DNA from: Candidatus Omnitrophota bacterium | GTDB lineage: Bacteria > Omnitrophota > Omnitrophia > Omnitrophales > Aquincolibacteriaceae | DNA length: 64,000 nucleotides | Assembly (NCBI GenBank): GCA_030698625.1 | Contig: JAUYMS010000042.1 | Span: 160,423-224,422, forward strand | Direction: 5' to 3' | The notes under the pieces: generated by a model | The model's input: only the letters and a program-made list of their open reading frames with translations | What the model was told of the DNA's origin: nothing | Database searches by the model: none | Shown here: positions 36,835 to 54,584 of the stretch, piece after piece | Numbering within the stretch: the stretch's first letter is position 1 | Layout: each line of letters starts with the position of its first letter | Made by a program: the position numbers and the translations under genes

Positions 36835-37359
36835 TTACTTCGCCGATTTTACAAACTGAAGCGCAAGCGAATTCATACAATAGCGCTTGCCCGTCGGGTG
36901 GGGTCCGTCTTCAAAAACATGACCCAAATGCGATCCGCATCGGGCGCAATGCACTTCGATGCGCTTCGCAAAAAAACTACGGTCAATCGAAAAACCGATA
37001 TTCTGCTCCGCGATCGGCTCCCAGAAGCTAGGCCATCCTGTATGCGAATCATACTTCACGGCAGAACGAAAGAGCTCTGTGCCGCAAGCAATGCACCGGT
37101 AGATCCCGTTTTCGCCATACTTATTGTACTCACCCGTATAGGCCATCTCCGTTCCGTGCTCGCGCGTTATATGAAAGACCTTGGGGTCAAGAATCTTTCT
37201 CCATTCGTCTTCGCTCTTTTCAATTTTCTCAACTTGCACGAGCTTCTCCTGACTGCTGTCGTAAACGGCTATGGTCTCAGCAGCTCTGACCGAGCCCCGT
37301 CCCAAAAACACTAAAACCAGAACCCCCAAAATAACTTTAAGAATCAAAGTGAATCGCAT
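36835..37359 (-). CDS. msrB: Peptide-methionine (R)-S-oxide reductase MsrB with an N-terminal signal peptide
   Basis: CIACGTELF...HCARCGSHLGHVFEDGP...GKRYCMNS. Hydrophobic N-terminus MRFTLILKVILGVLVLVFLG. Confidence 0.85.
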   Translation of the reverse strand: MRFTLILKVILGVLVLVFLGRGSVRAAETIAVYDSSQEKLVQVEKIEKSEDEWRKILDPKVFHITREHGTEMAYTGEYNKYGENGIYRCIACGTELFRSAVKYDSHTGWPSFWEPIAEQNIGFSIDRSFFAKRIEVHCARCGSHLGHVFEDGPHPTGKRYCMNSLALQFVKSAK

Positions 37360-38021: not shown

Positions 38022-39683
38022 TTAATCGGGACTCAAAGGGTTGGCCATCCCGGAGGGCGGGCTCTTGAATACCGTGCATAATGCCGCACCTCCTGCCCGA
38101 GCCTCACAAAAACCCGATGCCGGCGGCCAGCCCCCTCTTTGCAGCACGGACGGCTCCCAGCGCGACGGCAGCATAATATAGTAATCAAGCGGAACATTCA
38201 GGCCGCGCCTGATGGCAGGTTTATACGGAATAAATCTGTTCCCCAATTCCCTTTTGAGGTAATAGAAACTCGACATCATGCTGCCATCGGCATGCACCGC
38301 TATCGGGCGCGTCATACCCGATTCGCGATAGTGGTCCGCTAAGCACTCCGAGCATGCCCTCAAACTGTTCCCCCAGTAATCGGTTTCATAATAGCCGACC
38401 GCCCCTTTCACATCGCCGACGAGGGCATTGAAATACGTTGCCTGGTACGGGTGATTACGCATCATCCATGCCACGGGTTCCAGGCAGAGAATTCCCAGAA
38501 AAACACAAAGGGCAATTTTGAGATTACGGGTCTTAAGGATTTCAAATAGTCGATCCCATGCCGCCGCAATAAGAACCACCAGCGGCGGGTAGATAAAAAG
38601 CACATGCCTCCAGCCATTATAGAGTTGAGATTTCTGGACTATGATCCAGACCACCGGAAAGACGGACCCGACGAGCAGTACTGTGAGCGAAGTCGGCTTC
38701 AAGTGTTTGAACATATGAATCAATACGGCACCGAGTAGAATGAGCCCAAGCAAAATAAGGATCGGGCTTGAGATCGCAATCCACTTGGGTATGTAGTACC
38801 ACGGGATTTCTGAGGCGAGTATCTTCCTGCCTTCAAACAAAAGGGTATCGCCCGCATTCGTAAAGTGAGCCATTTTTTGCATCGCAAGCCAGGGATGAAT
38901 CAACGGCGACACTAAACCGTAGGGCCAGAAAAGCAGCCCCCCGAAATAGCCGCCGGTGGTAACAGCGCCCAGCACCACGAAACATCGCGGCCATGACACC
39001 TCGCGCCTATACTTGTAACAGCTCCACAAACCGAATACCCATAGGTAAGCCAGCAAGAGAACGCCGCCAATCCGGACACCCAGGGTTACCGCAATAGCAA
39101 CGGCCAAGCCAACCGAGGTTGAAATCCTGGGTCGCGGAAATTGATCTGTGAATTTTATCAGGAGATACAAAAATAGCATGTACCCCATGGCAAATGGGAT
39201 GTCTTTGGGATTATTCATCGCATGCCCCAAAAAGCGCGGTGAAATCGCCAGAAATATCATCGCAAAAAATCCTGCACGCCAGCCCGCAAGGTGTCTTGCC
39301 GCCAAACCCGCGAACAGGATGGCCAAAAAGCCGAACAGCGCATTGATACAATGGCGCGTTTCAAAAATCCACGCCACGGCAAGGTCATCCTGCAACTGCA
39401 GCTGAGCAACCGCATGAATCGAATCAAAGACCGCGCCGTAGATAACGGTGGCGACAACATCAAAGAAGCCGCCGTAAAGATATAGATCCTTAAAACCCAT
39501 AACCTCCCGATCGGCTCCGCCGCTTAAGAAAAACCGCAGAACCAACCGACCGTAATAGGACTGCGCCCAGTCGTCCCAAGTAATACCGAAGTCCAGGCTT
39601 AAAAGGGGCATGGCAACGGCGAGCAGGCCTGCCACCGCGATAAAGGCCAGGGCATAGGGGCGCGGTTTTGCAGAAAGGTTCAT
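38022..39683 (-). CDS. Polytopic membrane GT-C-fold glycosyltransferase (PMT/ArnT-like), putative
   Basis: About 550 aa with at least 10 TM segments and a C-terminal soluble domain. Start chosen at MNLSAKPRPYALAFIAVAGL, adjacent to the dedA stop. Confidence 0.5.
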   Translation of the reverse strand: MNLSAKPRPYALAFIAVAGLLAVAMPLLSLDFGITWDDWAQSYYGRLVLRFFLSGGADREVMGFKDLYLYGGFFDVVATVIYGAVFDSIHAVAQLQLQDDLAVAWIFETRHCINALFGFLAILFAGLAARHLAGWRAGFFAMIFLAISPRFLGHAMNNPKDIPFAMGYMLFLYLLIKFTDQFPRPRISTSVGLAVAIAVTLGVRIGGVLLLAYLWVFGLWSCYKYRREVSWPRCFVVLGAVTTGGYFGGLLFWPYGLVSPLIHPWLAMQKMAHFTNAGDTLLFEGRKILASEIPWYYIPKWIAISSPILILLGLILLGAVLIHMFKHLKPTSLTVLLVGSVFPVVWIIVQKSQLYNGWRHVLFIYPPLVVLIAAAWDRLFEILKTRNLKIALCVFLGILCLEPVAWMMRNHPYQATYFNALVGDVKGAVGYYETDYWGNSLRACSECLADHYRESGMTRPIAVHADGSMMSSFYYLKRELGNRFIPYKPAIRRGLNVPLDYYIMLPSRWEPSVLQRGGWPPASGFCEARAGGAALCTVFKSPPSGMANPLSPD

Positions 39684-40378
39684 TTGCTCATATCCCGGCT
39701 CAAGGCATTTCGGGCAATGCGCCTTAGGTAAAGAACCAATATAATCGCCGCAACCATCCCGCCGATGAGAAGCGCCCACTCCAGAGGAGTCCGCTGGCGG
39801 CCCTGCGCATTCATGGCGGCAAGACTTCCGGTAATCGACCCCAAGTAGACGTAAACTGCGGCTGAGGGAATAGACCCGATGACTGTGGCCAGAAAATAAT
39901 GAAATGCCGGAATTCGAGTGAGGCCGATGATATAGTTTCCGATCAGAAAGGGGAAAATGGGGGTGAGACGGGCAAGTAAAACAACACGCCAGCCTTTCTT
40001 TTCAATTGTCTTATCCATTAGCTCAAACTTTTCGTTCCTCGCGTAGATACGCTCGACCCATCCGCGCGCCAGATATCGGCCGGTCAAGAGCGCCGCTGTA
40101 GATCCTATGCCATGGGCCAGCAGACTAAAGGCCAATCCTTTGAGAACGCCAAAGAGAATGCCCGCCGAAAAGGTAAAAACAAATGAAGGAACAAAAAAGA
40201 TACAGGTAAGGATATAGACGCCCATAAACACGACCGGCCCCCAAGGGCCGAAGTCATCAATCCAGTCCAGGACCTTGGGCAAAATTCCCTGCGTGTTAAG
40301 GTAATAGGCCAAGCTAAGGAGTATGGCCAGGATCATCAAACGAATCCAAAACCGCTGCCCCTTACTTAAAATTGCCAT
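39680..40378 (-). CDS. DedA/TVP38/TMEM64 family membrane protein
   Basis: FVPSFVFTFSAGILFG...LARLTPIFPF...NYIIGLT, hallmarks of the SNARE-associated/DedA family. Confidence 0.8.
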   Translation of the reverse strand: MAILSKGQRFWIRLMILAILLSLAYYLNTQGILPKVLDWIDDFGPWGPVVFMGVYILTCIFFVPSFVFTFSAGILFGVLKGLAFSLLAHGIGSTAALLTGRYLARGWVERIYARNEKFELMDKTIEKKGWRVVLLARLTPIFPFLIGNYIIGLTRIPAFHYFLATVIGSIPSAAVYVYLGSITGSLAAMNAQGRQRTPLEWALLIGGMVAAIILVLYLRRIARNALSRDMSK

Positions 40379-40390: not shown

Positions 40391-41440
40391 TCAGACATTT
40401 ATCTGAGTCGGTTGCGGCTGCTTTTCAAAGAGATAATGGGCCACATACCACTCCGCCCCCTCGTGATATCCAAAAAGTTCCGCACAAGCCATAAAAAATA
40501 CACGCCAATAAGCCCACCACTTCTTTGCCTCTTTTCCGTAAGTCTGCTGAAAAAGGGGTTCTATTTCCCGTCTGCACGAATCCATTTTCTCGAGCCACGC
40601 CTTACAGGTCTTTTCGTAATGACTGCCCGAGACCTGCCAAAGGTCTCGCAAGCGGACATCCTCCTGAAACTCCAGGAACAAGTCTTCCGAAGGCATGGTG
40701 CCTCCCGTAAAGAAGTGTCGGGCCATCCAATTGCCGTCGTCTTCCATAGGGTAGAGATAAGGAAATGTCTTATGACAAAAAACATGGACAAAAAGCAGTC
40801 CGTCGTTCTTCAACCATGAGGATACCTTATGAAACAGTTGTTCGTAGTTGCGCATATGCTCGAACATCTCAATCGAGAAAATTCGGTCATATTCGCAGTC
40901 ACTTGAAAACGTATTCATATCGGCAGTGATGATCTTAACATTCTTAAGGTTTCGCCGCTTCGCTTCCGTTTCAATCCACATCTTTTGGGTACGGGAATTG
41001 GATACTCCCGTAATGCAGCTGTCGGGGAATTTTTCGGCAAGGAACAGGGTCAGTGAGCCCCAACCACAGCCGAGGTCCAGAATGTCATAGCCATCCTTTA
41101 TCCGGGCACGGTCAGCACAGAGACCGAGCATCGCTTCCTCGGACGCATCGAGATCAACATCCCCTTCCTCCCAGTAACCGCAGCTGTATTTCAACCTCCC
41201 GCCCAAGACAAGTCTAAAAAATTCAGCCGGCACTTCGTAGTGCTGCGCATTGGCCTCGGCGGTCGCTATGGCGATAGGGCTATGTCTTAGTTCATCAAGA
41301 AGGGTGGAACGGCGGTCGAGTTGGGCGGGGACTCCCCCCAGTGATTCCTGCCGCAACTTTTCCCTAAGTTGTCTTCGTATGCCGATGCGAATCAGAAAAT
41401 CAGGGATGAATCCATGTGTGAGAAGGCCTTCATACCACAT
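40391..41440 (-). CDS. Cyclopropane-fatty-acyl-phospholipid synthase family SAM methyltransferase
   Basis: LDLGCGWGSL...FSIEMFEHM...CRREIE, typical of the CFA/mycolic-acid synthase family. Confidence 0.85.
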   Translation of the reverse strand: MWYEGLLTHGFIPDFLIRIGIRRQLREKLRQESLGGVPAQLDRRSTLLDELRHSPIAIATAEANAQHYEVPAEFFRLVLGGRLKYSCGYWEEGDVDLDASEEAMLGLCADRARIKDGYDILDLGCGWGSLTLFLAEKFPDSCITGVSNSRTQKMWIETEAKRRNLKNVKIITADMNTFSSDCEYDRIFSIEMFEHMRNYEQLFHKVSSWLKNDGLLFVHVFCHKTFPYLYPMEDDGNWMARHFFTGGTMPSEDLFLEFQEDVRLRDLWQVSGSHYEKTCKAWLEKMDSCRREIEPLFQQTYGKEAKKWWAYWRVFFMACAELFGYHEGAEWYVAHYLFEKQPQPTQINV

Positions 41441-41443: not shown

Positions 41444-42304
41444 TCAGGCCTTCGAGGCTGAAGCGGGGTCTTCGTCTCTGGGAAACCACGGAATAAACAT
41501 GTTGGTCGATCTTTGATAACGAAGATACTCATCTCCCCTCGACCGAATAGCTTGTTCCTCTGCCTTCGGAATACCGGTTACATTAAAGAGGAAGTGCAGA
41601 ATAAGTGCGGGGCAGGCAATAACCAGGATGCCGAACGGAGATCCCAAAGAATAGATAAATAAGGCGCACCAGATAAGAAATTCAAAGAAATAGTTCGGAT
41701 GACGCGAATAGAACCACAACCCTTCGCGACACGTCTTCCCTTTGTTTTCAGGATTCGATTTGAAATTCTCGAGCTGCAAGTCGGCAATGCTCTCTCCCGC
41801 GAAGGCCGCCACCCACAGGACAAAACCGAGGCCCTCAAAAAACACAAGCCCCGGACGCACATTATGCGAGGCGATAATAAAAGGAAGCGATAAAAGCGCC
41901 GCCACGGCACCCTGAAGGAGAAAAAAGATAAGCAGTTTCCTTTCTTTCTCTTCACCCCATTTATTTAAAAGCTCCGCGTATCGCGGGTCCTCACCTTTTC
42001 CGGCGACTCGCTTAAATAAGATAAAAAAACCCAATCGCATCCCCCAAAAAACCCCCATAACCGTAACAAAAAACCTGCGCCACTCATAACCCTCGCCCAA
42101 AGTGCCAAAAAAAATCGCCAGAAGGGCTATGAGACCGGCCCATACAGGGTCGACGATACTCGCCTTCTTGATGCGCACCGAGACAAACCACAACGCTGCC
42201 ATTATAGGGAGCGTAATAAACAGAGCCTGGATCAGACCACCAATAGCAAATCCCACTTTGACCTCCTTATCCCTTAGGACTGGCTTGTGAAAGCAGCTTG
42301 TCAC
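41444..42304 (-). CDS. DUF1295 / steroid-5-alpha-reductase-like (ICMT-fold) membrane protein
   Basis: Multi-TM. C-terminal GLWFYSRHPNYFFEFLIW, the signature of the DUF1295 / 3-oxo-5-alpha-steroid 4-dehydrogenase family. Confidence 0.65.
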   Translation of the reverse strand: MTSCFHKPVLRDKEVKVGFAIGGLIQALFITLPIMAALWFVSVRIKKASIVDPVWAGLIALLAIFFGTLGEGYEWRRFFVTVMGVFWGMRLGFFILFKRVAGKGEDPRYAELLNKWGEEKERKLLIFFLLQGAVAALLSLPFIIASHNVRPGLVFFEGLGFVLWVAAFAGESIADLQLENFKSNPENKGKTCREGLWFYSRHPNYFFEFLIWCALFIYSLGSPFGILVIACPALILHFLFNVTGIPKAEEQAIRSRGDEYLRYQRSTNMFIPWFPRDEDPASASKA

Positions 42305-43727
42305 GCAACTTACCGCTCAAGGCCCATTCAGACACCCAGATGCCGAAATAGGCACGCGCAAAATCTTCGCCCGGGACTATCGCCTTTTCCACGCCGTTTA
42401 AGAGCAGCGAGGTTCCGCGTTCCGGTTCATAGCGCAATTCATAGCGATCGCCCTTTTCGACATCCTCATAGGCATCATTAATGATTCGAAGACGGTCTCG
42501 AATTGCCTGCAGGTTGACGGTAGGGTTCTTTCCAAGCGCCCGGTCGGCTGCCTTTACAAATTGCGGCTGTTTTAAACCGCGATGGTATTCAATAACTAGC
42601 GACATAGGTACTTCTCCGAGGACCTGATCCTGTGCGGCCACATCCGCAGGAAGATATAAAGCCGCGGTATACACGTCCAACGTGAGAAACTCCAGTAATC
42701 CTATTCCCCGCAACGGCAAGGCATTGCCGGCTACGGCTGTCGTGCTTTCAAAGCAAGAGTTATTAAGACACTGCCCTTCGGCAGCGGAAGCGGCAAAAAC
42801 CTGTGCGGGTGTAAGTAGAACCATGAGAACCAGCGCCGCTGCGATTGCATGCTTGGATACCGCCCGCGCTTCCTCATAGATATCCTGTGGCGGCCTTCTC
42901 AGATCCCAAACAACCCCTATCCACGATAGGGCCGTCAACACATAATGGGTCACGTCAATCTCCCACCAATAAAATCCCTGCCGTTCCGAAGACGGGCATC
43001 TGTGATGATTATTGTGCCAGCCCTCGCCCATCGTTAAAAGGGCAACCCAGATATTATTACGACCATCATCTTTATTCGCAAAACGTTTTGATCCAAACAA
43101 ATGGCTGAAAGAATTCACCGCAAAGGTCACGTGGAAAAGAAAGACCGTACTGATAAAAAATCCCCAGACGATTACCTGACCAGCCGTTAATCCGATATCC
43201 GGCGCAAAACGTTCGAGACAAATTCCGAGAACTGCCACTACGGAAAAAAAGAATAAGGCCGGGATTTTTTGATTGCGATTCAGATACCGCAGTTCCGGGT
43301 ATACCGCAAAGTCGGCCACGTGAGGGTCGGGATGAAGGTTTGCGTGCTTCTTTGTCATGAACCATCCCACATGGGACCAGAAGAAACCATGAATGATGGG
43401 CGAATGCGGATCCAGTTCGGTATCCGCATAGCGATGATGATTCCGATGATGCGCGGCCCACCACAGAGCATCCTTCTGCAAGGAACAGGCTCCGAGAAAA
43501 GCCAGTATAAACTGGAATATCCGTGATGTTTTAAACGAGCGATGTGAGAAATACCGATGATAACCCGCCGTTAGCCCGAACATCCGCGGTAGCAGGGTTA
43601 CCAGAAATACAACGATAGCCGCACCGCTCATACCCGTAACAAAGGCAAGCAGACACCCCGCGTGCATCAACACAAAAGGGACATTTCCCCAAAACTCAAT
43701 AGTCTCCTCTTTCGGCCGGGGACTCAA
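42267..43727 (-). CDS. Membrane fatty-acid desaturase (stearoyl-CoA-desaturase type His boxes) fused to a C-terminal chalcone-isomerase-like domain
   Basis: HRYFSH, HRNHHRY and HNNHH boxes in the first ~280 aa. The last ~190 aa have no TM segments (LGEVPMSLVIEYHRGL...). Confidence 0.7.
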   Translation of the reverse strand: MSPRPKEETIEFWGNVPFVLMHAGCLLAFVTGMSGAAIVVFLVTLLPRMFGLTAGYHRYFSHRSFKTSRIFQFILAFLGACSLQKDALWWAAHHRNHHRYADTELDPHSPIIHGFFWSHVGWFMTKKHANLHPDPHVADFAVYPELRYLNRNQKIPALFFFSVVAVLGICLERFAPDIGLTAGQVIVWGFFISTVFLFHVTFAVNSFSHLFGSKRFANKDDGRNNIWVALLTMGEGWHNNHHRCPSSERQGFYWWEIDVTHYVLTALSWIGVVWDLRRPPQDIYEEARAVSKHAIAAALVLMVLLTPAQVFAASAAEGQCLNNSCFESTTAVAGNALPLRGIGLLEFLTLDVYTAALYLPADVAAQDQVLGEVPMSLVIEYHRGLKQPQFVKAADRALGKNPTVNLQAIRDRLRIINDAYEDVEKGDRYELRYEPERGTSLLLNGVEKAIVPGEDFARAYFGIWVSEWALSGKLRDKLLSQASPKG

Positions 43728-45739
43728 ATGGGTAGCGATTCCACGCGCACTGCTGCTTCCGGTTTCCTGTCTAAGGAGCGGTTACCGGTTCGCGATAGTA
43801 CCAACTGAAGATCGTTCAAGTGCCTCGCTTCGAATGCGGCCTCGCAATATGAAAAATAATACTGCCACACCCGCAGGGTCTTACGGGAGAAACCGAGCGC
43901 CTCCGCCTGTGTCTTTTGTTCCAGCAAGCGCTCCCGCCACAGGGCAAGTGTCCGCGCGTAATGGGGGCCTATATTATCCAACTCTTCGACATAAAAGGAA
44001 GAAGATTGAGTCATTGCTCGGCAGAGCGCTGAAAGCGACGGGAGATGTCCCCCGGGGAAAATATACTTTTGAATCCAGTCGCAACCCCTCCTGTAGGAAT
44101 CGTAACGCTGATCGGGGATGGTAATCACCTGGAGCACCACAACGCCGTCGGGTTTGAGCAACTCGTCGAAGCGCTTAAATAATTTGCCTAAATGCTCCCG
44201 GCCTACGGCTTCCAACATTTCAATGGATACAATGCGGTCAAACTTGCCCCGGACATGCCGGTAGTCGCAGAGTTGAATATCAATGCGGTCGCTGTACCCG
44301 GCCTCGTCAATCCGTTTGCGCGCAAACGCGAGCTGTTCTTTGGAGAGGGTGATTCCCGTAACCCGGCACCCGGTCGTGCGTACCGCCTCAATAGCAAAGG
44401 CACCCCATCCGCATCCGATCTCAAGCACGTGATCTTGCTCTGAGATCCTTGCCTTTCGCAAGATAGACCGAATTTTATTTTTCTGGGCCGCAGCCAAGTC
44501 CCCCCCCTCTTTTTCGAATTGACCGCAAGAATACGTCATGCTCTTATCCAGAAAGAGCTCATAGAAATTATTGCTTAAATCATAATGCGCTTCAATGTTT
44601 CTTTTACTACCTCGAACGGTATTTCCATGCCTCAAATGCCGCCAGCGATTAAGCCTTGCGCCGAGCTCCTCCAGGAGGGAGACCTTCCTCTCAAGATAAG
44701 GTTTATTATCAACCAGCAGTCCAATCACCGCCGTCACGTCGGATGAGTCCCAATCCTGTTCTACATACCCTTCACCAAAACCGATGCCGCCATCCCGCAC
44801 AATACGGCAGAAAAAATTATAGTCCCGGATTCGAATAACCGCTTTCTTGCCCGCTTCACTGCCGCCCCATGTTTCCGAGCGGCCATCCGGGTACGTAAGC
44901 GTAAGGGATCCTCGCCTGATCTTCGAAAGATAGCGTAGAACAATTCGCATAGCAATACGCTGTAAAAAGTTGGGGAGCGCGGTTCGTATGGTCATAGGGT
45001 TATCTACCGGGGGTTTCTTGAACACACTAATTTTTTTACCGTAAAAAAGTTTGGCCGCCTGGATATGGATGCGTGGTAACGTCATGACGGCCGTCATCGG
45101 GTAGCGGAGGAGAGTCCCGACAAGATTTGCCGTCGTAATTGGGACGGCGTTCCCCCACCAGCGTGAAACCAATGCAGCGTGTCCCTCTCGAAACAAGTTG
45201 ACCTGAAGATCTGCCTCAGCGCCCAACGACGAGAGTTTAAATTCGTACTCTCCCGCCCTGTCAAAGAAGGGCGAGACGTGGAAAACCTTTGGCGCTCGGT
45301 AATGGCCGTCTTTGGCCGAAAAATTATCCTTTAAGATATAGAGGTGTGTCTCGCCAAACGTATTGCTCACTTCGGCAACGGCACAGCCTAACTTTCCGCC
45401 TGAAGTATAGCAATAATAGAAACTTGCCGGGTTAAAAATCGTTCCCAGAAAACGGGCACAGGTGACAAGTTCTACGCGGGCAATACCTCGCGCACAATCA
45501 TGCGCTTCGAGAAATCGGAGCAGTTTCTCTTTTGTAGTACCCGGCCCTCGGTCAAGATAGTCTTTATCGTAAAGAGACACAACGCCGAAGTGATTATAGG
45601 AAAATAGCCGCACGCCCTCAGCGAGAATCGGCAGTTCGTCTAGATCGAACACGTAGAAATAGCTGGGGTACTCAAACTTATGCTGCACCGGTTGTAGACG
45701 CGCATGCATCAAAGTACCGCGATAGATGCGTGAGTTCAT
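43724..45739 (-). CDS. DUF1365 N-terminal domain fused to a cyclopropane-fatty-acyl-phospholipid-synthase-like C-terminal domain
   Basis: N-terminus YRGTLMHARLQPVQHKFEYP... is DUF1365-like. The C-terminus has LEIGCGWGAF...SIEMLEAVG, the CFAS motifs. Confidence 0.75.
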   Translation of the reverse strand: MNSRIYRGTLMHARLQPVQHKFEYPSYFYVFDLDELPILAEGVRLFSYNHFGVVSLYDKDYLDRGPGTTKEKLLRFLEAHDCARGIARVELVTCARFLGTIFNPASFYYCYTSGGKLGCAVAEVSNTFGETHLYILKDNFSAKDGHYRAPKVFHVSPFFDRAGEYEFKLSSLGAEADLQVNLFREGHAALVSRWWGNAVPITTANLVGTLLRYPMTAVMTLPRIHIQAAKLFYGKKISVFKKPPVDNPMTIRTALPNFLQRIAMRIVLRYLSKIRRGSLTLTYPDGRSETWGGSEAGKKAVIRIRDYNFFCRIVRDGGIGFGEGYVEQDWDSSDVTAVIGLLVDNKPYLERKVSLLEELGARLNRWRHLRHGNTVRGSKRNIEAHYDLSNNFYELFLDKSMTYSCGQFEKEGGDLAAAQKNKIRSILRKARISEQDHVLEIGCGWGAFAIEAVRTTGCRVTGITLSKEQLAFARKRIDEAGYSDRIDIQLCDYRHVRGKFDRIVSIEMLEAVGREHLGKLFKRFDELLKPDGVVVLQVITIPDQRYDSYRRGCDWIQKYIFPGGHLPSLSALCRAMTQSSSFYVEELDNIGPHYARTLALWRERLLEQKTQAEALGFSRKTLRVWQYYFSYCEAAFEARHLNDLQLVLSRTGNRSLDRKPEAAVRVESLPI

Positions 45740-47010
45740 AAGCTAACCCCGAAGTGTTCCGCGACACGCACCCCTGACAGGACTGCATCTTCATGAAATC
45801 CATAGCCAAAATAACTCCCGCAAAAAAAAGTTCGCGCTGCTCCATTTAGAACAGAGAGCTCGTCTTGGGTGCGAACCGAATCATTCGTATAACAGGGATG
45901 CTCATAATCGATTCTTCGCAGGACCCTTTCTTCCGCCAGGGCATCGTGGCGATTGAGCGACACAAAATAGGGATTGATCGTTTGTAAATTCTGAAGACGA
46001 TTCATGTGATACGTCAGCGAAACGGGCGCTCCCGGCAATTCGTCCTCACGAATATAGTTCCAAGAGGCCCACGCGCGAGGCGCTTTGGGCATAGCGCTGA
46101 CGTCAGAGTGCAGAACCGCCTGATTTTTCGTATAACGCCACGCCCCCAAAAGTCGCCTTTCGTCCCGCGACGGATCGGCCAGTACATTCAAGGCCTCATC
46201 GGCATGCATTGCAATGACAACATAATCATAGGCATTTTCCGCTTTTCCGTCTACGGCAACATAAACCTTGTCGAGCGCCCTACGCACGCGAGAGACATTC
46301 GCATTCGTGTACATCCTCCCCGAAAATTGCTCGCGAACAGCTCGCACATACGTGTGGCTTCCCCCGGGTACGTACATCCAGCGGGGCCTTTCCTTAAGCG
46401 CCAGTAAACCGTGATTGTCAAAAAAACGGAGGAAGGTTTCTGCGGGAAAATCCAACATCTCATCGCAAGGTGTTGACCAGATCGCGGCACCCATCGGAAT
46501 GAGATACCAGTCCATAAACTGCTTCGAAAAGTTTCCCTTTTCCAGGTAGGTCCCCAACGTGGTCCGTCCGAGCAGCCCGGCCTTCAAATCGCGCTGAGAC
46601 TCAGAATTAAAGCGAAGGATATCGGCAATCATGCGGTAAAAAGACGGGCGCAGCATATTGCGCTTCTGGGCAAAAAGACCGTTCGGGACATAGCTTGAAT
46701 ACTCGATGCCGTCGCGCCTCGAACTAAAACTAAAAGACATATCACTCGGACTGCCCGTAATCCCCAAGCGGGACAGAAAACGTATAAATGTAGGGTAATT
46801 GCGATCATTATAGACAATGAACCCCGTATCAACAGGGGTCCCGGCATCGGGACCATGCTCGATGACGATCGTATTGGTGTGCCCTCCAAGGTACGCGTTT
46901 TTTTCATAGAGCGTTACGTCGTAACGCTGTCCCAGTAAGTGGGCCGCCGCAAGGCCCGCAGCCCCCGTGCCCGCAATTGCGATTTTTGCATCTGCGCGGT
47001 ACTCAGGCAT
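45736..47010 (-). CDS. FAD/NAD(P)-binding amine-oxidase-like oxidoreductase (the partner usually found in CFAS/DUF1365 clusters)
   Basis: N-terminal IAIAGTGAAGLAAAHLL...YEKNAYLGGH dinucleotide-binding motif. Confidence 0.75.
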   Translation of the reverse strand: MPEYRADAKIAIAGTGAAGLAAAHLLGQRYDVTLYEKNAYLGGHTNTIVIEHGPDAGTPVDTGFIVYNDRNYPTFIRFLSRLGITGSPSDMSFSFSSRRDGIEYSSYVPNGLFAQKRNMLRPSFYRMIADILRFNSESQRDLKAGLLGRTTLGTYLEKGNFSKQFMDWYLIPMGAAIWSTPCDEMLDFPAETFLRFFDNHGLLALKERPRWMYVPGGSHTYVRAVREQFSGRMYTNANVSRVRRALDKVYVAVDGKAENAYDYVVIAMHADEALNVLADPSRDERRLLGAWRYTKNQAVLHSDVSAMPKAPRAWASWNYIREDELPGAPVSLTYHMNRLQNLQTINPYFVSLNRHDALAEERVLRRIDYEHPCYTNDSVRTQDELSVLNGAARTFFCGSYFGYGFHEDAVLSGVRVAEHFGVSL

Positions 47011-50000
47011 GGATAATTTCTTCCATCGTCGAATTCTTTAGAAGCTCCGGCTCAATGCGGACAGCCTCACGCATAGCATTGCGCATCTCATCCCCCCTGC
47101 CCATTTTGTCATATATCCGTGCTAGATTAATATAACCCGACGAGCTGTTTGGATACAGACGGATAAAACTGCGAAACGCTTCTGCCGCGACCTCATATTT
47201 TTCCTGCTTCTCAGAGACCCAGCCCAATTCCAGATAAGCCGTCGGATGGAGCGGGTAGCTCTTCACAAACCTGCGAACAGATGCGAGCTTTTCCTCATCA
47301 CTGCCGATCGATACTTGGATACTTACGATCCTTTCCAAAGATCCAAAATGCCTTCCCTTCGACCTGATAATTTCCTCATAAACTTTCAGAGCTTCCGGAA
47401 GTTGATGTGCCTTAAAAAGAGCATCGGCGAAAGCCTGGAGGTGTCTTTCGCGTTCCGTCAGTTCTACAGCCCTGCGAAGGTATCCCACGGCACTCTGCGA
47501 GTCTCCTTGTTCCATAAGAACTTTACCGAGGTAGTAATTACCATCCGCGGACTCTGGGTTCGCCTGAACAGCCTGCGTCAGATGTCTGGCTGCTTCAAGT
47601 TTATTATCCGTAAGATAATGCAGAATACCTGCCACCTCTAGGTTTCCCGGATGGTCCGGATTGGTCTCGACAGCCATGTTCAGCACGCGCCGTGCCATCT
47701 GGTAAAATTTGCCTGAAGCGTATCCCTTAGCAACCTCATGCAACAGAGCGACATTTTTCTCCGGCGGCGGGTTGATGTTTTCCATGGGTGGGAAAACCTT
47801 TGTTCTGGCACGATTCAACCATTCGAAATTCATTTTGCCGGTTTTCTCGTAAAGATGTCGCGGGGCTGAGTATTCCAAAATGGGTCGGTTATCACGATGT
47901 ATGGGCGCCTCCCGACTGAGCAGCCGCAGCTCGGTATCATCAAGCCAAAACGTCGCTAAGAAATTGCCGGGCGTTCGCAGGCCGTAGGGCCCTAAATCTT
48001 CGACAAGCTGAGGATTTTCATAGCCTCCCTGAATGCGGGCGAAGTCGACCGGCCGTTTTTCATTGCGGCCGATTAGCATTAAGTCCGGGTAGTCGGATCG
48101 CCAGAGCTGAACATGAGCGAAAGCCTCGCTGAAAGTTCTAACAATCGTCGCAATGTCCTCAGACCCCATGTTATAAGCGTGTAGCCACTGGCACGCAACC
48201 CCTCCCGGCTTCAGGCGGCTGCTCATTGTTTGGAAGTTTTCCAAAGAAAAAAGATTTGCGACGCCCGCCATCCAGGGGTTTGACGGCTCCGAGATAATAA
48301 TGTCATAAAGATCGGGCCTGACAAGAAGGGCATTGCGCCCGTCGTTGACAAAAAGCTTCACACGCGGATCTCTGAGCACGTTTCGATTCATGAAGAGGAA
48401 GAACTCGGACGCCTCTACCACGGCGGGTTCCAATTCGACCACATGCAAAACTTCCGCCGGATGGGATGCCGCAGCCGCAAGCGTCGACGCGCTGCCCAAA
48501 CCGATGATCAATACCTTTTTCGGATTGGGGTGAAGGAGCATGGGAAGATGCCCCAAATAATATTGCGTCAAGGCATCACCGTCTGAGGCATCCGTCTTTC
48601 CGTTGACAGTCAGCGCGATATTGTCCCTAGCGCGCGTAACGGACACGGTAGCGCTCGGGCCATCTTTATGGAACAGTGTTCCTCTGTTGAGAAAGTTCCT
48701 CTGAAATTCCTCATGGCTCAGGCCAACACTTTTCCACGGTTTGGTCACGGAATCACTCGAGTCCATCACCGAAAGATTCCAAGGTTTCACAAGCGAAACG
48801 GCAATCCCAACCGCAAGAAACAATGATGTTCCGGCAGCCAGTCGCTTCCAAACAAAGTTAGGGCGATGCAAGAAAAAGGCAGTGACACCCACCCCGGCAT
48901 TAATAAGTCCCGCGGTCAGTAAAGTCTTCTGAATTCCGATCGCGGGGATGATCAAAAAACCCGTCAGGGCCGAGCCCAGGATTGCGCCTATCGTATTAAA
49001 AAAGTACGCCGCGCCGACTTCGGTTCCGATAGCTGCCGTTCGGCGGTAGATATGGATAAAGCATGTAAAGGCCGCTCCAATCATCAGCGTAGGCATAAAC
49101 ATGACCGCCGAGCAGAGCAAAAATCTGCCAAACTCAAGAACAAGCGAATTCCCTCGAGCCCAAACGAAGAGCTGTATGAAAAAATAAGGAATATCGTCAA
49201 AGAAATTGATACCGATAAGCGATGAGAGAGCCGTAAGCATTTGCAAAGCGGAGAAGGTCATCAAATCGGCTTTAAATCGTTTGGAAAAAACGCTGAACAG
49301 GAAACTTCCCAAGGCTATTCCCAGGAGAAAGGTAGCCAGCATCACCGAAAAGGCGTAAACGGAACTACCGAGAACCGTCGCCATAACCCTTGTCCAGCCG
49401 ACTTCGTAGATCATCGAGACCGCCCCTGATAAACTGAAGAGACAGAGCAGCACCGGTGCTTTTACGCTCTGCTGTCCCGCGGCGGGCGGACTTGCCTGCG
49501 ATTGGGCTTCGTCATCAACAGCTGCGGCCTCAGGCGCATAGTAGCAGCAGACCCCGTAGATCATAAAGTTTATAGCCCCTGTCAGTAGGACCGTCTGCCA
49601 CAGCCCCAGAGCATAAATAGCATAGAAGCCGCTGAACAAGACACCGATGACCGCGCCCAGAGTATTCAAGGCATACAAAAGCCCGACATATCTTGCGGTA
49701 TCCCTTTTCTGACGCACAAAGAACTTCGAAACAACGGGCAGGGTGCCCCCCATCAGGAAAGAAGGGATAAAGAGGACGGTAAAGGCCACAATAAATTTGA
49801 ACAGGCTCGCCTGCATGAATTCAGGATCGACGCCGTGATAAAAAACGATATTAAGACCGTCGATCAGTTTCCATATCAAAGGAGTAATCAAGGCATAGAA
49901 TCCGACACCGGCTTCCAGCAACCCGTAGGTTGCGACCGGCTCCCCCTTGGCATCAATTTTCTTGCCGAAGTACAACGCGCCAAGACCAAGCCCCGCCATA

Positions 50001-50149
50001 TAACTGGACAAAACCGTGCTGGTTGCAAAAGTAGTATTGCCAAACACCAGTGACATCACTTTCAGCCAGGCGATCTCATAGACGAGGCCGCATAAACCCG
50101 ACACAAAGAAACATGCGAGGATTACGGAACGAACGCGGGGAATTTTCAC
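47003..50149 (-). CDS. Polytopic membrane domain fused to a spermidine-synthase-like aminopropyltransferase domain and C-terminal TPR repeats
   Basis: About 12 TM helices in the N-terminal half. VLIIGLGSAST...DIIISEPSNPW, the SpeE-family motifs. C-terminal TPR units. Confidence 0.75.
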   Translation of the reverse strand: MKIPRVRSVILACFFVSGLCGLVYEIAWLKVMSLVFGNTTFATSTVLSSYMAGLGLGALYFGKKIDAKGEPVATYGLLEAGVGFYALITPLIWKLIDGLNIVFYHGVDPEFMQASLFKFIVAFTVLFIPSFLMGGTLPVVSKFFVRQKRDTARYVGLLYALNTLGAVIGVLFSGFYAIYALGLWQTVLLTGAINFMIYGVCCYYAPEAAAVDDEAQSQASPPAAGQQSVKAPVLLCLFSLSGAVSMIYEVGWTRVMATVLGSSVYAFSVMLATFLLGIALGSFLFSVFSKRFKADLMTFSALQMLTALSSLIGINFFDDIPYFFIQLFVWARGNSLVLEFGRFLLCSAVMFMPTLMIGAAFTCFIHIYRRTAAIGTEVGAAYFFNTIGAILGSALTGFLIIPAIGIQKTLLTAGLINAGVGVTAFFLHRPNFVWKRLAAGTSLFLAVGIAVSLVKPWNLSVMDSSDSVTKPWKSVGLSHEEFQRNFLNRGTLFHKDGPSATVSVTRARDNIALTVNGKTDASDGDALTQYYLGHLPMLLHPNPKKVLIIGLGSASTLAAAASHPAEVLHVVELEPAVVEASEFFLFMNRNVLRDPRVKLFVNDGRNALLVRPDLYDIIISEPSNPWMAGVANLFSLENFQTMSSRLKPGGVACQWLHAYNMGSEDIATIVRTFSEAFAHVQLWRSDYPDLMLIGRNEKRPVDFARIQGGYENPQLVEDLGPYGLRTPGNFLATFWLDDTELRLLSREAPIHRDNRPILEYSAPRHLYEKTGKMNFEWLNRARTKVFPPMENINPPPEKNVALLHEVAKGYASGKFYQMARRVLNMAVETNPDHPGNLEVAGILHYLTDNKLEAARHLTQAVQANPESADGNYYLGKVLMEQGDSQSAVGYLRRAVELTERERHLQAFADALFKAHQLPEALKVYEEIIRSKGRHFGSLERIVSIQVSIGSDEEKLASVRRFVKSYPLHPTAYLELGWVSEKQEKYEVAAEAFRSFIRLYPNSSSGYINLARIYDKMGRGDEMRNAMREAVRIEPELLKNSTMEEIIHA

Positions 50150-50152: not shown

Positions 50153-52657
50153 TTAGACGGTGTGTGAGGGCGAAAAAAGCTTGCGGAAATCTTCGGTGGC
50201 CAACTGCATTACATCCATGAGTTTCAGAAAATGATCATAGCTGGAGAATATCCATTCGGGAATACTCTGAGCACCGGAACGCCACCTCTTCAGAAGAAAA
50301 AAGAGATCGTCCTGTGCCTGGCGCTGCCTGAGGGAAATGCCCAACCTCTCAGCCAGGCCGTGGATATTCAAACACTCAGTAACGAGATCGGCCCGAGGCT
50401 CCTCCACGAAAGTCTTCATGCGATTTCCCAACTCCTCACTTAGGAACAACGCAGCCGAAGTCTTGTCCATATTGATATGAAACTTGTTAGCCGCCTCCAC
50501 GATCTCGAAAGCGGAATCGACCTTCTTCAGATTAAACCCATCGACGGCAATTTTGCGCACCGCACCCATGAAACGCTTACCGAGCACATGCTCCGCAACG
50601 TAGCGAAACTCGGGCGGAATGGGGAGACGTATTGACCGGTACATCATATTCATACGGCGGTTTTCGTCATAGATTGTTTCGTAGAATTGGCTTACCTTTT
50701 CCATCTGTTCCCGCGTCACCAAGGAGATGATCTTCATCCGGTCTTCCAACAACAGATCCTTCAACCTGAAGTGATTCTCACCGAATTGCGCATCAACTTT
50801 CTCGAGTAATTCAAGGGCCGCAGCATGGTCAATGCCTGTAAAGATATCCTTCTCGATAGCCTCAAAGCATTCTCCTCCGGTGTCCGACTTTACGTAGCAG
50901 CGAAAATCATGGAGCCCCATTTGGATCACGAAAAAGATTAAACTTTTCTCCTCGAGCGTAACTCGAGAATGGATTCGTGCACGCCCCAGTTGGACGGTCA
51001 TTTCGCCGAGCGTCTCGCGGCGGATGTTCGAAACATTGAGATAAGCACAACGATTATCAAGACTGTCCTCGGACGGATAGTAGTCCTTGAAAAGGGAACC
51101 GATCGCATAGTAGCTGACAATGTGTTCGAGTGAGGCCACAGACGGCCTGACTAGGGATTCGTAGACATCTCGGCCGCTACCCCAAAGCCTTAGGTTGCTT
51201 TCCGCCTTTTCAAGGAAGGCAAGAAAATCGGCCTCATAATCGATCCCGCTCACTTCGTGGGCCAATTGCATCGCCCTCGCCGCATACTGGAGTATCTGGA
51301 TGGTTTCAATCCCGGAGATATCGGAAAAAAACCAGCCGCAGCTTGTATACATGAGCATCGAGTGCCGCTGCATTTCAAGGAGCTTCAAGCAGACACTGCG
51401 CTCATCCGGATTGAGCTTTTTCTTCTGATGTCTGCCGAGGAAACTCTCGATTGTCGCTTCACTCCTATCGAGAATAACTTCGATATATTCATCGCGCGCC
51501 TTCCAAACATCACCAAGATATTCCGAACCGCCGCTTTCATAGAGCTTGGCGAGTCGATCGCGCAAACTATTCAGAGAATCCCTGAGCGGTTTACGCCACT
51601 TTTGATTCCACCCCGCACGCGCCCCGGTGGCACACCCGCAATCATCCTTCCACCGCTTGACGCCGTGTGCGCAACTCCAGGCCGTCCCTTCGCCATCCTC
51701 GCCCTCTTTGAGCTTTACCGTATTTTTTGGCGGATGTCGGGCCAGGAATGCCCCATAGTTGGATACATGGTAACCCCGCTCGGGAGCCTCCACGCTGAGG
51801 AAGTACGCAAGAGCTTGCTCGCCGAAGGCCTTATGGTGGCCGTAGGTCTCCCCGTCAGTAGCCACGTGAATAAATTGTGTCGAAGTCGCATTTTTAGCAA
51901 CGGCTCCCTCGATTCGATCCATGAACTGCTTCGCATCTGAGAGAATATTTTCAAACCCCACCGCATGCGATATCGGTCCGTCATAAAAAAATAAACTGAT
52001 AGACCGGTTAGGATCATTCTTAAGCTTATAGCGATAGGCCTGGCGAGGGTCAATACCTCCCGTGGAAACGTCGTGCCACTCGATTTCATCCTTACCGTCC
52101 AGGCTTACCGCTTTGGCCTGATGCGGTGAGAGAATGGTAAACTTCAATCCTTCATCAACAAGAACTTCGAGCGTTTCGTCATTGCAAGCGGTTTCGGGCA
52201 ACCAGATACCTTCGGGGGCACGGCCGAAACGGTGCCGGAAATCGGCAATCCCCCAGCGCACTTGGGTAACTCTGTCCCGGCCATTCGCCAACGGCATAAT
52301 CATGTGGTTATAAACCTGCGCAATTGCATTACCGTGGCCATGGTGAGCGTCGGCGCTGACACGATCGGCTTCCACGACGCGTTGATATGTTTTGGGGTGT
52401 TTATCCTCGAGCCAGGACATCAGGGTGGGGCCGATATTGAAACTCATCTTCTCGAAATTATTGACGATATCAACAATCTTACCGGCATCGTTGAAGATGC
52501 GAGCGCGAGAATTGGCGACATAGCATTCACTATAAATACGCTCGTTCCAATCGTGGAAAGGCTTGGCGCTTTCTTGTCGCTCGATAATTTCTACCCAGGC
52601 GTTTTCTCTGGGAGGTTGATAGAAATGGCCATGCAGACAGACATAGACAGGCTTCAA
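50153..52657 (-). CDS. Glycoside hydrolase family 57 protein (large form with a DUF3536-like C-terminal extension)
   Basis: N-terminal YVCLHGHFYQPPRENAW matches the GH57 HxHxYQPxRE signature. 834 aa. Confidence 0.7.
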   Translation of the reverse strand: MKPVYVCLHGHFYQPPRENAWVEIIERQESAKPFHDWNERIYSECYVANSRARIFNDAGKIVDIVNNFEKMSFNIGPTLMSWLEDKHPKTYQRVVEADRVSADAHHGHGNAIAQVYNHMIMPLANGRDRVTQVRWGIADFRHRFGRAPEGIWLPETACNDETLEVLVDEGLKFTILSPHQAKAVSLDGKDEIEWHDVSTGGIDPRQAYRYKLKNDPNRSISLFFYDGPISHAVGFENILSDAKQFMDRIEGAVAKNATSTQFIHVATDGETYGHHKAFGEQALAYFLSVEAPERGYHVSNYGAFLARHPPKNTVKLKEGEDGEGTAWSCAHGVKRWKDDCGCATGARAGWNQKWRKPLRDSLNSLRDRLAKLYESGGSEYLGDVWKARDEYIEVILDRSEATIESFLGRHQKKKLNPDERSVCLKLLEMQRHSMLMYTSCGWFFSDISGIETIQILQYAARAMQLAHEVSGIDYEADFLAFLEKAESNLRLWGSGRDVYESLVRPSVASLEHIVSYYAIGSLFKDYYPSEDSLDNRCAYLNVSNIRRETLGEMTVQLGRARIHSRVTLEEKSLIFFVIQMGLHDFRCYVKSDTGGECFEAIEKDIFTGIDHAAALELLEKVDAQFGENHFRLKDLLLEDRMKIISLVTREQMEKVSQFYETIYDENRRMNMMYRSIRLPIPPEFRYVAEHVLGKRFMGAVRKIAVDGFNLKKVDSAFEIVEAANKFHINMDKTSAALFLSEELGNRMKTFVEEPRADLVTECLNIHGLAERLGISLRQRQAQDDLFFLLKRWRSGAQSIPEWIFSSYDHFLKLMDVMQLATEDFRKLFSPSHTV

Positions 52658-52747
52658 GACATGCTCCTAAAAAAACAGCGCAGTCGCCGGAGAGATCTAC
52701 GGGTGGGATTTATTTGAAATTGTCGGAATCTTGGCAACAATCAAACG

Positions 52748-52969
52748 TTAGCCGTTAGATTCCCGCAGAGATACCTTCACAGAGCGGCCGGAGCGAGCTA
52801 GGCTGATCTTTTCTTCACGCGCCAGCCATCCGAGAGCCTGGTTAAAAAGCGAAGCATCGGATACGCCTACTTCCTTCTGCACCGTGGAAGACGGTTTTGC
52901 ACCCTGATTCTCTAAGGCCCTGTAAATTTTTCCTGCGACATCACCGATTGCATAATCTTGTTCGCTCAT
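52748..52969 (-). CDS. Small winged-helix protein (DUF2582-like)
   Basis: 73 aa with a helix-turn-helix-like core. Located between the two GH57 genes. Confidence 0.45.
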   Translation of the reverse strand: MSEQDYAIGDVAGKIYRALENQGAKPSSTVQKEVGVSDASLFNQALGWLAREEKISLARSGRSVKVSLRESNG

Positions 52970-52994
52970 GGTTCATTTCTCCTTTCTCTTAGAA

Positions 52995-54581
52995 CTATTG
53001 GTCACAAAAAACGCGGTAATCGACTTCGGGAAAGATATTGTCCTTATCTTCAAGCTCCTTCAACCAGCCCTCATCAACACTGTTGTTGATAAGGTCTTCG
53101 TAGATCCGTGTAAAATTCAGCAAATGGTTCTTAGTACGCTTAACAGCATAAGGCACCATGGTTCCCGTATGCATGATAAAGGCCCAATCGCTCGATTGGG
53201 CCAGTAAAAGCTCACGGGCAGCCTGGTTCAAAGACCGTTCCACGATGCCATTCTGATTCAAAAAACGGTTCGCCAACTCCCCCATCCTCAAGCTTGCCTT
53301 GTGCAAGTGCGGATAGATCCACTCATTGGCGCCGGAAAGCCAGGTCTCTGAATATCCTTTCCAGCCCCAACTCGACATCGACGGAGTCGAAACCTGGTTG
53401 ACCGGAAACTGTTTGAGGTAGTCGAGCGGCGTTGCCAACCGAATCGTATCCTGGTCATAGGCGATCTTTCTTATGAGAAAATTCAAAAAATCCGGCCCCT
53501 CATACCACCAATGGCCGTAAAGCTCTGCGTCGTAGGGGGCAACCACGATGGGCTTCCTTCCCATGAATTCATAAAGACATTCCACCTGTTTCTGGCGATT
53601 GAACAGGAAATTGCCCGCATGAGTTGCGGCTTTTTCCAAAGCGCGGGCACGCGAATAGGTTTCCTTATGGTCACCCGCACCTGTGATGCGGTGATACTTA
53701 AATCCGGTGCTGACTCTTAAACCGTCGGGAGCAATATAGGGTTTAATATATTCAAAATCGAGGTCGAATCCAATATCGCGGTAGTACTCTCTGTAGTCGT
53801 AGTCTCCCGGATAGCCCTCTTCCGCCGACCAAACCTGCTTCGAAGACTCGAAGTCGCGACCGAAAGCGGCCACGCTTGAATTACAATAGATCGGAGCAAA
53901 TACGCCGAATTTCGGGCGCGGAGACGCGTGCAGAATACCGTGCGTATCGACTAAAAAGTAACGGATACCCGCGCTTTTTAGGTACCGGTCTACGCCTGGA
54001 ACATACCCGCATTCCGGCAGCCATATTCCCACGGGTTTTCTGCCAAACACTTTCTCATACTGTTTCACCGCGGTTTGAATCTGACCGCGCACCGCTCCCG
54101 GCGTGCGGTTGACCAGCGGCAAAAACCCATGAGTCGCGCCGCAAGTAAGAATTTCCAAATACCCGCGATCCTGAAATCTTTTAAAGGCCCATATCAAGTC
54201 ACGGTAATAGCGATTAACAAAGGTGTCGCGGGCCTGTGTAAACTGATAATAGTAATGAAGTGCGGTGTCATGATATGCCGGTTCAAAACGTGTCCGATCG
54301 ATTTCCTTGCCCGCAAGTTCGATCAACCTATCCAGGTGACGCACGTACCGTTCCTGCAACAACGGGTCTTTCAGCATGGAGATCAGGGTCGGCGTCAACG
54401 ACATCGTGAGACGAAAGGGCACGCCGTCGCGCTCAAGCCCCTCAAACATATGAATCAGCGGAATATAGGTCTCGGAAATGGCCTCATAGAGCCAGTTCTC
54501 TTCCAAGAAATATTCGTGCTCGGGGTGGCGAACAAAGGGTAAATGGGCATGAAGAACGATTGAAAGGAGACCCTTTTCCAT
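52995..54581 (-). CDS. GH57 family 1,4-alpha-glucan branching enzyme (AmyC/TK1436-like)
   Basis: LSIVLHAHLPFVRHPEHEYFLEENWLYEAISETYIPL N-terminal signature, WLPECGY and HG motifs. 528 aa, consistent with GH57 branching enzymes. Confidence 0.8.
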   Translation of the reverse strand: MEKGLLSIVLHAHLPFVRHPEHEYFLEENWLYEAISETYIPLIHMFEGLERDGVPFRLTMSLTPTLISMLKDPLLQERYVRHLDRLIELAGKEIDRTRFEPAYHDTALHYYYQFTQARDTFVNRYYRDLIWAFKRFQDRGYLEILTCGATHGFLPLVNRTPGAVRGQIQTAVKQYEKVFGRKPVGIWLPECGYVPGVDRYLKSAGIRYFLVDTHGILHASPRPKFGVFAPIYCNSSVAAFGRDFESSKQVWSAEEGYPGDYDYREYYRDIGFDLDFEYIKPYIAPDGLRVSTGFKYHRITGAGDHKETYSRARALEKAATHAGNFLFNRQKQVECLYEFMGRKPIVVAPYDAELYGHWWYEGPDFLNFLIRKIAYDQDTIRLATPLDYLKQFPVNQVSTPSMSSWGWKGYSETWLSGANEWIYPHLHKASLRMGELANRFLNQNGIVERSLNQAARELLLAQSSDWAFIMHTGTMVPYAVKRTKNHLLNFTRIYEDLINNSVDEGWLKELEDKDNIFPEVDYRVFCDQ

Positions 54582-54584
54582 AAC

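Follow-up and report, generated by a model that had tools for sequence, protein, structure and literature searches.

We analysed a 64,000-nt stretch of a Candidatus Omnitrophota contig (the window; all positions are in its numbering) and found in it a single open reading frame (ORF) that joins a predicted delta-9-type membrane fatty-acid desaturase to a C-terminal domain with the chalcone isomerase (CHI) fold, Pfam family Chalcone_3. The original prediction had placed a fusion of a desaturase and a CHI-like domain here, and with a single ORF and both Pfam domains present it is real and far above chance. The fusion is a rare, recurrent architecture built from known families; the desaturase and the fold are themselves ordinary. 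Our explanation, which as a whole we hold with moderate confidence, is that two neighbouring genes of a lipid cluster were fused end to start, that the CHI domain would be exported, and that it would have a role in lipid modification.

The fusion ORF is uninterrupted and codes for 486 aa counted from a TTG that shares bases with the TGA of the upstream gene (TTGA). It lies on the minus strand, which the original prediction did not give. An identical protein (P0001), from a Candidatus Omnitrophota metagenome-assembled genome, is labelled "chalcone isomerase family protein" at NCBI, where it is modelled from the ATG at codon 21 and has 466 aa. The TTG start at 43727 adds 20 residues to this public model (43668-43727, minus strand), among them IEFWGNVPF. 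Because this motif is also kept in two further fusions, P0002 and P0003, we consider the 486-aa form the more likely gene model.

Residues 1-282 form a complete delta-9 desaturase of the SCD1/DesC type, which is probably active. The Pfam FA_desaturase model (PF00487) matches aa 39-261 (1.4e-18, 68 bits against a cutoff of 29.7 bits), mouse and human SCD1 (4YMK, 4ZYO) match across aa 3-278 with E = 1.4e-32, and thousands of stand-alone bacterial acyl-CoA or stearoyl-CoA delta-9 desaturase and DesC proteins of about 300 aa share 50-68% identity. The NCBIfam DesA model scored under its cutoff (70 against 400). All of the metal-ligand motifs of SCD1 (4YMK) are matched in the alignment to this half (Table 1): the three His boxes that had been named in advance, HRYFSH, HRNHHRY and HNNHH, are present exactly, and there is an extra NSFSH. 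Hydropathy peaks at aa 25-43, 157-175 and 185-203, where the AlphaFold2 (AF2) model has long helices, and the predicted hydrophobic hairpins lie at about aa 25-43(+) and 157-175/185-203. The Pfam match, the SCD1 alignment and the ligand motifs together bear out the call of an integral-membrane acyl desaturase. We infer desaturase activity and delta-9 regiospecificity from the same similarity.

Searching with the C-terminal part alone gave 25 homologues, all of them stand-alone proteins of about 170-225 aa. A classical signal peptide stands at the N-terminus of nearly all of them, with a CxxxxC pair after it in the close ones. We also surveyed 90 stand-alone relatives with a complete N-terminus, scoring signal segments by a heuristic. 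A hydrophobic N-terminal segment was present in 86 of the 90, with a positively charged n-region in 81 of those 86, and 67 of the 90 had the CxxxxC pair. Stand-alone homologues were looked for in clusters of the cyclopropane-fatty-acid (CFA) synthase type in other genomes, as had been proposed, and were found (e.g. L001, L008, L012, L014 and L034). On the P0122 contig (L001) the order is CMAS, a desaturase of 299 aa, a Chalcone_3 protein of 188 aa with a signal peptide, DUF1475, DUF1295, CMAS and VTT; separate, adjacent desaturase and CHI genes in this order occur in four GTDB genomes (L008, L012, L014 and L034). We believe that the two separate genes of the P0122 contig show the ancestral state.

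In these unfused relatives the desaturase ends with VWDLRxPPxEIYEEA, a K or R, and six to eight more residues before the stop codon, and the CHI gene begins either 0-10 nt further on or within the end of the desaturase gene, as with the ATGA of L008. The window protein reads across this point as ...VWDLRRPPQDIYEEARAVSKH-AIAAALVLMVLLTPAQVFA-ASAAEGQCLNNSC..., and the window holds no in-frame start with a ribosome-binding site (RBS) for a separate CHI protein. The segment AIAAALVLMVLLTPAQVFA (aa 294-312) is the second most hydrophobic 19-residue stretch of the protein, with a Kyte-Doolittle value of 2.21 against 2.41 for the first transmembrane segment, and the full-length model has a helix at 281-304. 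Judged by eye and from hydropathy, this part of the protein has the n-h-c layout of a signal peptide: SKH, then a 12-residue h-region AIAAALVLMVLL, then TPAQVFA/AS with Pro at -6, where the slash marks the putative signal-peptidase site. All three fusions keep this site as xFA followed by a small residue (VFA/AS in the window protein, AFA/AP in P0002 and AFA/GA in P0003). The fusion thus did away with both the stop and the start codon, together with the n-region, but kept the h-region, the Pro at -6 and the V-F-A/A-S c-region.

The C-terminal half matches Chalcone_3 (PF16036) over aa 326-479 at 8.3e-29, with 101.2 bits against a 27-bit cutoff, and the match covers model positions 9-164 of 165. 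Structure prediction, the check that had been suggested for this half, gave neither disorder nor an unrelated fold. The model of the C-terminal part is a high-confidence CHI fold (an open-faced beta-sandwich) with plant FAP1 and FAP3 among the nearest solved structures, and the full-length AF2 model has an overall pLDDT of 84. Sequence identity to the fold-matched solved structures is 11-19%, and there were no bacterial proteins among the close fold matches. Assignment of the domain to a subfamily by sequence failed with marginal PDB matches, and the fold searches alone were decisive. A single-sequence phmmer search against PDB sequences had no match, and in the profile search 4P99, a repeat protein, was a spurious one.

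Within the subfamily, two Tyr of the central strand (DVYTAALY) are invariant in the family alignment, as are one Val, one Asp and one Trp. A weak alignment (E = 0.03) pairs the VY-strand Tyr with a Tyr of AtFAP3, and a nearby Arg (LPLRG) varies within the subfamily between R, H, K and Q. Ngaki et al. reportedly found in 2012 that a conserved Arg and Tyr pair of FAP tethers the fatty-acid carboxylate. We tried catalytic chalcone isomerase as an identity for the domain and rejected it because the canonical Arg aligns with Leu (at Arg36, the one position mapped); identity to the catalytic enzymes is 11-16%, and the ORFs scanned around the gene include no chalcone synthase. The proposed resemblance to CHI-fold fatty-acid-binding proteins stands as far as the fold and the nearest structures go; fatty-acid binding itself is no more than plausible, given the Leu aligned with the canonical Arg and the fold scores discussed below. 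The Cys pair lies on a predicted beta-hairpin (strands E36-38/E41-43 of the domain model), which fits a disulfide and an oxidising compartment.

The CHI fold also has a precedent outside lipid binding. Yeast Aim18p and Aim46p are CHI-fold proteins that are anchored to the inner membrane by an N-terminal hydrophobic segment and bind haem, not fatty acids (PMC9996372), so the domain could be a periplasm-facing haemoprotein of this kind with a part in redox or oxidative-stress chemistry. However, the family alignment has no invariant His, Cys or Met and no CXXCH motif, the fold scores for plant FAP, CHI and CHIL are slightly above those for the Aim proteins, and the genomic linkage is to lipid-modifying enzymes. 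We regard a haemoprotein as unlikely.

To place the fusion among other proteins we used full-length searches and a junction profile. The full-length search gave three fusion clusters with seven member sequences altogether: P0001, identical to the window protein; P0002, which has 505 aa and 63% identity to it and comes from a JGI metagenome; and P0003, with 457 aa and 49% identity. P0001 and P0003 carry the source label Omnitrophota/Omnitrophica, so two of the three clusters, which are all those with an organism name from the source, belong there. The junction profile (alignment A3) runs from the last His box across the junction and through the CHI domain, and ranks fusions first. Among 5.8 billion proteins it found the same three fusions (578, 565 and 464 bits), the next match being a CHI-only protein at 228 bits, and in an exhaustive HMMER search over 1.84 billion cluster representatives P0003 was the sole fusion. 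In GTDB species representatives, 80 CHI-containing loci were examined, and not one had a desaturase and a CHI domain in a single ORF. The long matches of the representative search (P0238, P0325, P0334 and P0335) are tandem or extended desaturases with no CHI fusion, and the long stop-to-stop ORFs at the CHI genes of L010, L039, L040, L054 and L056 contain Chalcone_3 alone, probably behind stop-free upstream sequence.

The junctions differ among all three fusions, and in neighbour-joining trees of the CHI domain the fusions were monophyletic in none of 100 bootstraps. The CHI domain of P0002 grouped with the stand-alone protein P0121 in 100 of 100 bootstraps (67% identity, against 55% to the window domain), and that of P0003 with the stand-alone P0139 in 86 of 100. 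The desaturase domain of the window protein is 64-68% identical to unfused desaturases, 71% to P0002 and 56% to P0003. Since the junctions differ and the CHI domains are non-monophyletic, the fusion has formed or come apart on at least two to three occasions. It would be easily and repeatedly made, therefore, from abutting genes.

The same abutment makes room for a more sceptical account, in which an assembly or sequencing artefact or a neutral accident, such as an indel, merged the two genes into one whose product has no function or no relevance. Genes that abut or overlap in relatives could be joined by an error of 1-2 nt, the window protein is on one contig alone, the architecture is extremely rare, and in the case of a neutral accident cleavage would restore essentially the unfused products. 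But the three fusions come from different assemblies and have three different in-frame junctions, each with an intact signal-like segment and xFA motif, and because these junctions are independent an assembly artefact is disfavoured. The lack of an alternative in-frame start with an RBS for the CHI part and the conserved residues, all of which both domains keep, also speak against this account, and we judge it very unlikely.

Another combination appeared in the representative library: P0231 (304 aa) has a DUF1475-like small membrane domain N-terminal to Chalcone_3, with a signal-like segment between the two. Its DUF1475 match is weak (Pfam 22.1 bits against a cutoff of 22.3 bits). The DUF1475 gene comes after the CHI gene in L001 and on the P0002 contig.

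In the window the neighbours of the fusion gene are all co-directional (Table 1), and past the VTT/DedA gene follow a PMT_2-like glycosyltransferase, a methyltransferase and MsrB. The co-located CMAS, flavin amine-oxidase and DUF1365 families are those of the furan-fatty-acid gene set, and the window has all of them. NCBIfam equivalog-level names were obtained for none of the cluster proteins. In Rhodobacter sphaeroides and Rhodopseudomonas palustris, UfaM (a CMAS-type methylase), UfaD (an FAD enzyme of the phytoene-desaturase/amine-oxidase type) and UfaO (DUF1365) make furan fatty acids (FuFAs) from phospholipid cis-vaccenate (PMC7380195; Lemke et al. 2020). The UfaM/UfaD/UfaO genes and a photolyase are in the sigmaE-ChrR singlet-oxygen regulon (PMC5507510), and the UfaD/RSP1091 family is described in PMC7380195 and PMC5507510. 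We considered RSP1088 of R. sphaeroides (186 aa, dispensable for FuFA) as a CHI-like partner and set it aside, as the papers found call it a hypothetical protein or a lipoprotein homologue and not CHI-like.

Of the 80 CHI-containing loci, 26 had the CHI-like gene immediately after a CMAS gene. The amine-oxidase, DUF1365 and CMAS genes were all present in 29 loci and at least one of the three in 44, and a desaturase was present in only 8. The loci come from phyla that include Omnitrophota, Bdellovibrionota, Sumerlaeota, Planctomycetota, Gamma- and Betaproteobacteria and Myxococcota. Because the desaturase is so seldom there, we take the CHI-fold protein to be a recurrent accessory of the lipid-modification cluster as a whole rather than of the desaturase in particular. 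Of the other fusions, P0003 has the same cluster core, flanked by glutathione peroxidase, TspO and DNA photolyase, and the gene table of the P0002 contig reads DES::CHI-DUF1475-DUF1295-CMAS-VTT (DES being the desaturase).

A few more features of these clusters are worth recording. DUF1365 and CMAS are fused in many related loci (e.g. L007, L008, L011-L015, L019, L034, L044, L054 and L082) and separate in other lineages. The MsrB (SelR) methionine-sulfoxide reductase (36835-37359, minus strand) is directly downstream of the lipid cluster in the window, and in L082 glutathione peroxidase, TspO and photolyase surround the same cluster; these neighbours suggest an oxidative or photo-oxidative stress theme. 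On the other side of the window cluster, a 1048-aa ORF (47003-50149, minus strand) overlaps with its end the start of the amine-oxidase gene, so that it may be co-transcribed with the lipid cluster; TPR repeats at its C-terminus accompany an MFS-like membrane part and a domain resembling spermidine/spermine synthase. A group of GH57-family genes (GH57 with DUF3536, a GH57 branching enzyme with BE_C, and DUF4912) is found upstream of the cluster at 50153-55679 (minus strand); they belong to alpha-glucan metabolism and are unrelated to the fusion.

The N-terminus and C-terminus of SCD1-type desaturases are both cytosolic, and the segment at aa 294-312 adds one more pass, so the CHI domain would be outside. 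The charge flanking this segment has the same sense, with four K/R on its N-side and none on its C-side. The original prediction had the last ~190 aa free of transmembrane segments; this overlooks the hydrophobic segment, which lies 175-193 residues before the C-terminus, but it holds for the last 174 aa. We conclude that the CHI domain is most probably periplasmic, where either a fifth membrane pass would tether it or signal peptidase I would set it free, and for cleavage at VFA/AS the chances look evenly balanced to us. That the domain is a cytoplasmic fatty-acid-binding module, a soluble partner exchanging substrate or product with the desaturase site on the same side of the membrane, is highly improbable: a retained segment with signal-peptide architecture lies between the domains, 86 of the 90 stand-alone relatives have signal-like N-termini and most have the Cys pair, the charge bias sets the C-side of the segment outside, an extra pass after a cytosolic SCD1-type C-terminus leads outside as well, and the CHI-like gene mostly occurs without a desaturase (8 of 80 loci have one). 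Substrate delivery to the desaturase, which the original prediction had in mind, is likewise unlikely, because the CHI domain is predicted on the periplasmic side and the di-iron site on the cytoplasmic side. It is possible that the CHI domain accepts or handles lipid at the outer leaflet.

We therefore return to an end-to-start fusion with an exported CHI domain, which can be laid out as follows. The desaturase gene and the CHI-like gene that follows it in a conserved membrane-lipid-modification cluster were joined, with the stop and start lost and the signal peptide kept internally. As a fifth membrane pass, this signal peptide would export the CHI domain to the periplasmic face, where it would be tethered or released by signal peptidase I. 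We infer the export step from the SCD1 topology and the positive-inside rule, together with the secretion of the stand-alone homologues and the conservation of the Cys pair. Going by gene context, the desaturase would make a cis-monoene on membrane acyl chains, and the CMAS, amine-oxidase and DUF1365 enzymes would convert it to methylated or furan-type fatty acids. The CHI-fold protein would meet the same lipids on the outward side of the inner membrane, where it most likely binds or carries a hydrophobic ligand without catalysing a reaction. The main effect of the fusion would be a fixed 1:1 co-expression and co-localisation, with no substrate channel.

Several points weigh against this explanation. 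The junction of the window fusion is known from a single contig, and the periplasmic placement draws on heuristics and homology. Fold scores fail to tell apart catalytic CHI, CHIL, FAP and the haem-binding Aim18p and Aim46p, and the profile search of the CHI domain against the PDB is only marginal (4DOL, which is AtFAP3, at E = 0.03 and Aim18p at 0.64). In that weak alignment (E = 0.03) the Arg of GFRE in AtFAP3, the canonical GxGxR of CHI and FAP, corresponds to the Leu of GLLE. On the side of the cluster, 36 of the 80 CHI loci have no recognisable cluster gene, although some of these have short flanks, and the furan-fatty-acid assignment is one of Pfam family membership alone. The genes of the R. 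sphaeroides operon besides ufaD and ufaO are dispensable for FuFA synthesis, and none is described as CHI-like (PMC7380195; PMC5507510).

The fusion and the synteny tie bacterial Chalcone_3, a family without an assigned function, to UfaM/UfaD/UfaO-type clusters across many phyla, and if the explanation is correct they would also place the family on the periplasmic side. This would open a way to study a partner, so far uncharacterised, in the lipid response that involves furan fatty acids and singlet oxygen. It would also be a clean natural case of a signal peptide reused as an internal membrane pass upon fusion of abutting genes. Our literature search on bacterial or periplasmic Chalcone_3 proteins and on desaturase-CHI fusions found nothing relevant. 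A broader idea, which we offer only tentatively and consider doubtful, is that periplasm-facing Chalcone_3 proteins are an unrecognised, widely conserved part of the furan and methyl-branched fatty-acid (photo-oxidative stress) system, acting at the outer leaflet as chaperones for acyl lipids that have been modified or oxidised, and forming trans-membrane complexes with fused partners. Lipids would then be passed on, for example to the outer membrane or to disposal, and the recurrent fusions (with the desaturase here, DUF1475-like in P0231) would link modification at the cytoplasmic face to lipid handling at the periplasmic face.

Table 1. Parts of the fusion gene and its neighbours in the window.
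Feature	Position	Strand	Basis or remark
Whole fusion ORF, 486 aa	42267..43727	-	Stop codon 42267-42269; alternative ATG at codon 21 gives 466 aa
Predicted delta-9-type membrane fatty-acid desaturase domain, aa 1-282	42882..43727	-	Pfam, SCD1 match, hydropathy
His box 1 HRYFSH, aa 57-62	43542..43559	-	Aligned with SCD1 HRLWSH (4YMK)
His box 2 HHRNHHRY, aa 93-100	43428..43451	-	Aligned with SCD1 HRAHHKF (4YMK)
NSFSH, aa 205-209	43101..43115	-	Aligned with SCD1 NSAAH; Asn/His pair completing the di-metal site in SCD1
His box 3 HNNHH, aa 238-242	43002..43016	-	Aligned with SCD1 HNYHH (4YMK)
Fusion junction YEEARAVSKH, aa 284-293, desaturase tail	42849..42878	-	Read through where relatives have stop and next start
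Putative former signal peptide and fifth hydrophobic segment AIAAALVLMVLLTPAQVFA, aa 294-312	42792..42848	-	Hydropathy, model helix, homologues
CHI-fold (Pfam Chalcone_3) domain, aa 313-486, Pfam core 326-479	42270..42791	-	Pfam, fold searches
Cys pair CLNNSC, aa 320-325	42753..42770	-	Predicted beta-hairpin; candidate disulfide
Flavin amine-oxidase-family oxidoreductase (UfaD Pfam type)	45736..47010	-	Pfam Amino_oxidase
DUF1365 (UfaO-type) fused to CMAS methyltransferase (UfaM/CFA-synthase type)	43724..45739	-	Pfam; 671-aa ORF
DUF1295 membrane protein	41444..42304	-	Pfam; likely start GTG about 12 nt past the fusion stop, GGAGG before it
Second CMAS-family methyltransferase	40391..41440	-	Pfam
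VTT/DedA-family membrane protein	39680..40378	-	Pfam

Elsewhere in the window we noted three other items. In a 398-aa protein (24660-25856, plus strand) a c-di-GMP-binding PilZ domain and an N-acyl amino acid synthase domain of the FeeM type are joined. A 1385-aa ORF (5868-10025, minus strand) had no Pfam match at E <= 1e-5. Three consecutive ORFs occupy 20180-24511 (plus strand), two of them with multihaem cytochrome c554/c7-like domains, and the middle one (511 aa) had no Pfam match.

Compared with desaturases of the SCD1 and cyanobacterial DesC type (PF00487; 4YMK, 4ZYO), the window protein has the same HxxxxH, HxxHH and HxxHH boxes, the NSxxH motif and the hydrophobic hairpins, but it adds the fifth hydrophobic segment and a C-terminal domain of 174 aa that is predicted to be extracytoplasmic. 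Yeast Ole1, with its C-terminal cytochrome b5, is a desaturase fused to a redox domain, and Ole1-like fusions resemble the window protein in joining a delta-9 desaturase to an additional C-terminal domain. The redox domains of those fusions share the side of the active site and act as electron donors, whereas the CHI domain here would be parted from it by a membrane pass and is also found where there is no desaturase.

The stand-alone Chalcone_3 (PF16036) proteins in amine-oxidase/DUF1365/CFA-synthase clusters are direct homologues of the CHI domain with up to 52% identity, and they share the synteny, the signal peptide and the Cys pair. They are separate secreted proteins of about 190 aa, while the window domain is covalently joined to the upstream desaturase. 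Plant FAP1 and FAP3 (4DOO, 4DOL) share 11-17% identity with it; the canonical carboxylate-binding Arg aligns with a Leu of the window domain, and the domain is bacterial and predicted to be signal-peptide-dependent and extracytoplasmic. Aim18p and Aim46p (8EW8, 8EW9) likewise have a single hydrophobic segment directly before the CHI domain, which is an analogy of arrangement and not orthology; the anchor in the window protein is joined to an enzyme and would go back to a bacterial Sec signal peptide. Finally, the UfaM/UfaD/UfaO pathway and the sigmaE-ChrR regulon have the same three enzyme families as the window cluster, and the P0003 locus also has the photolyase and TspO. The published pathway includes no CHI-fold protein or membrane desaturase, and in the window DUF1365 and CMAS are fused.

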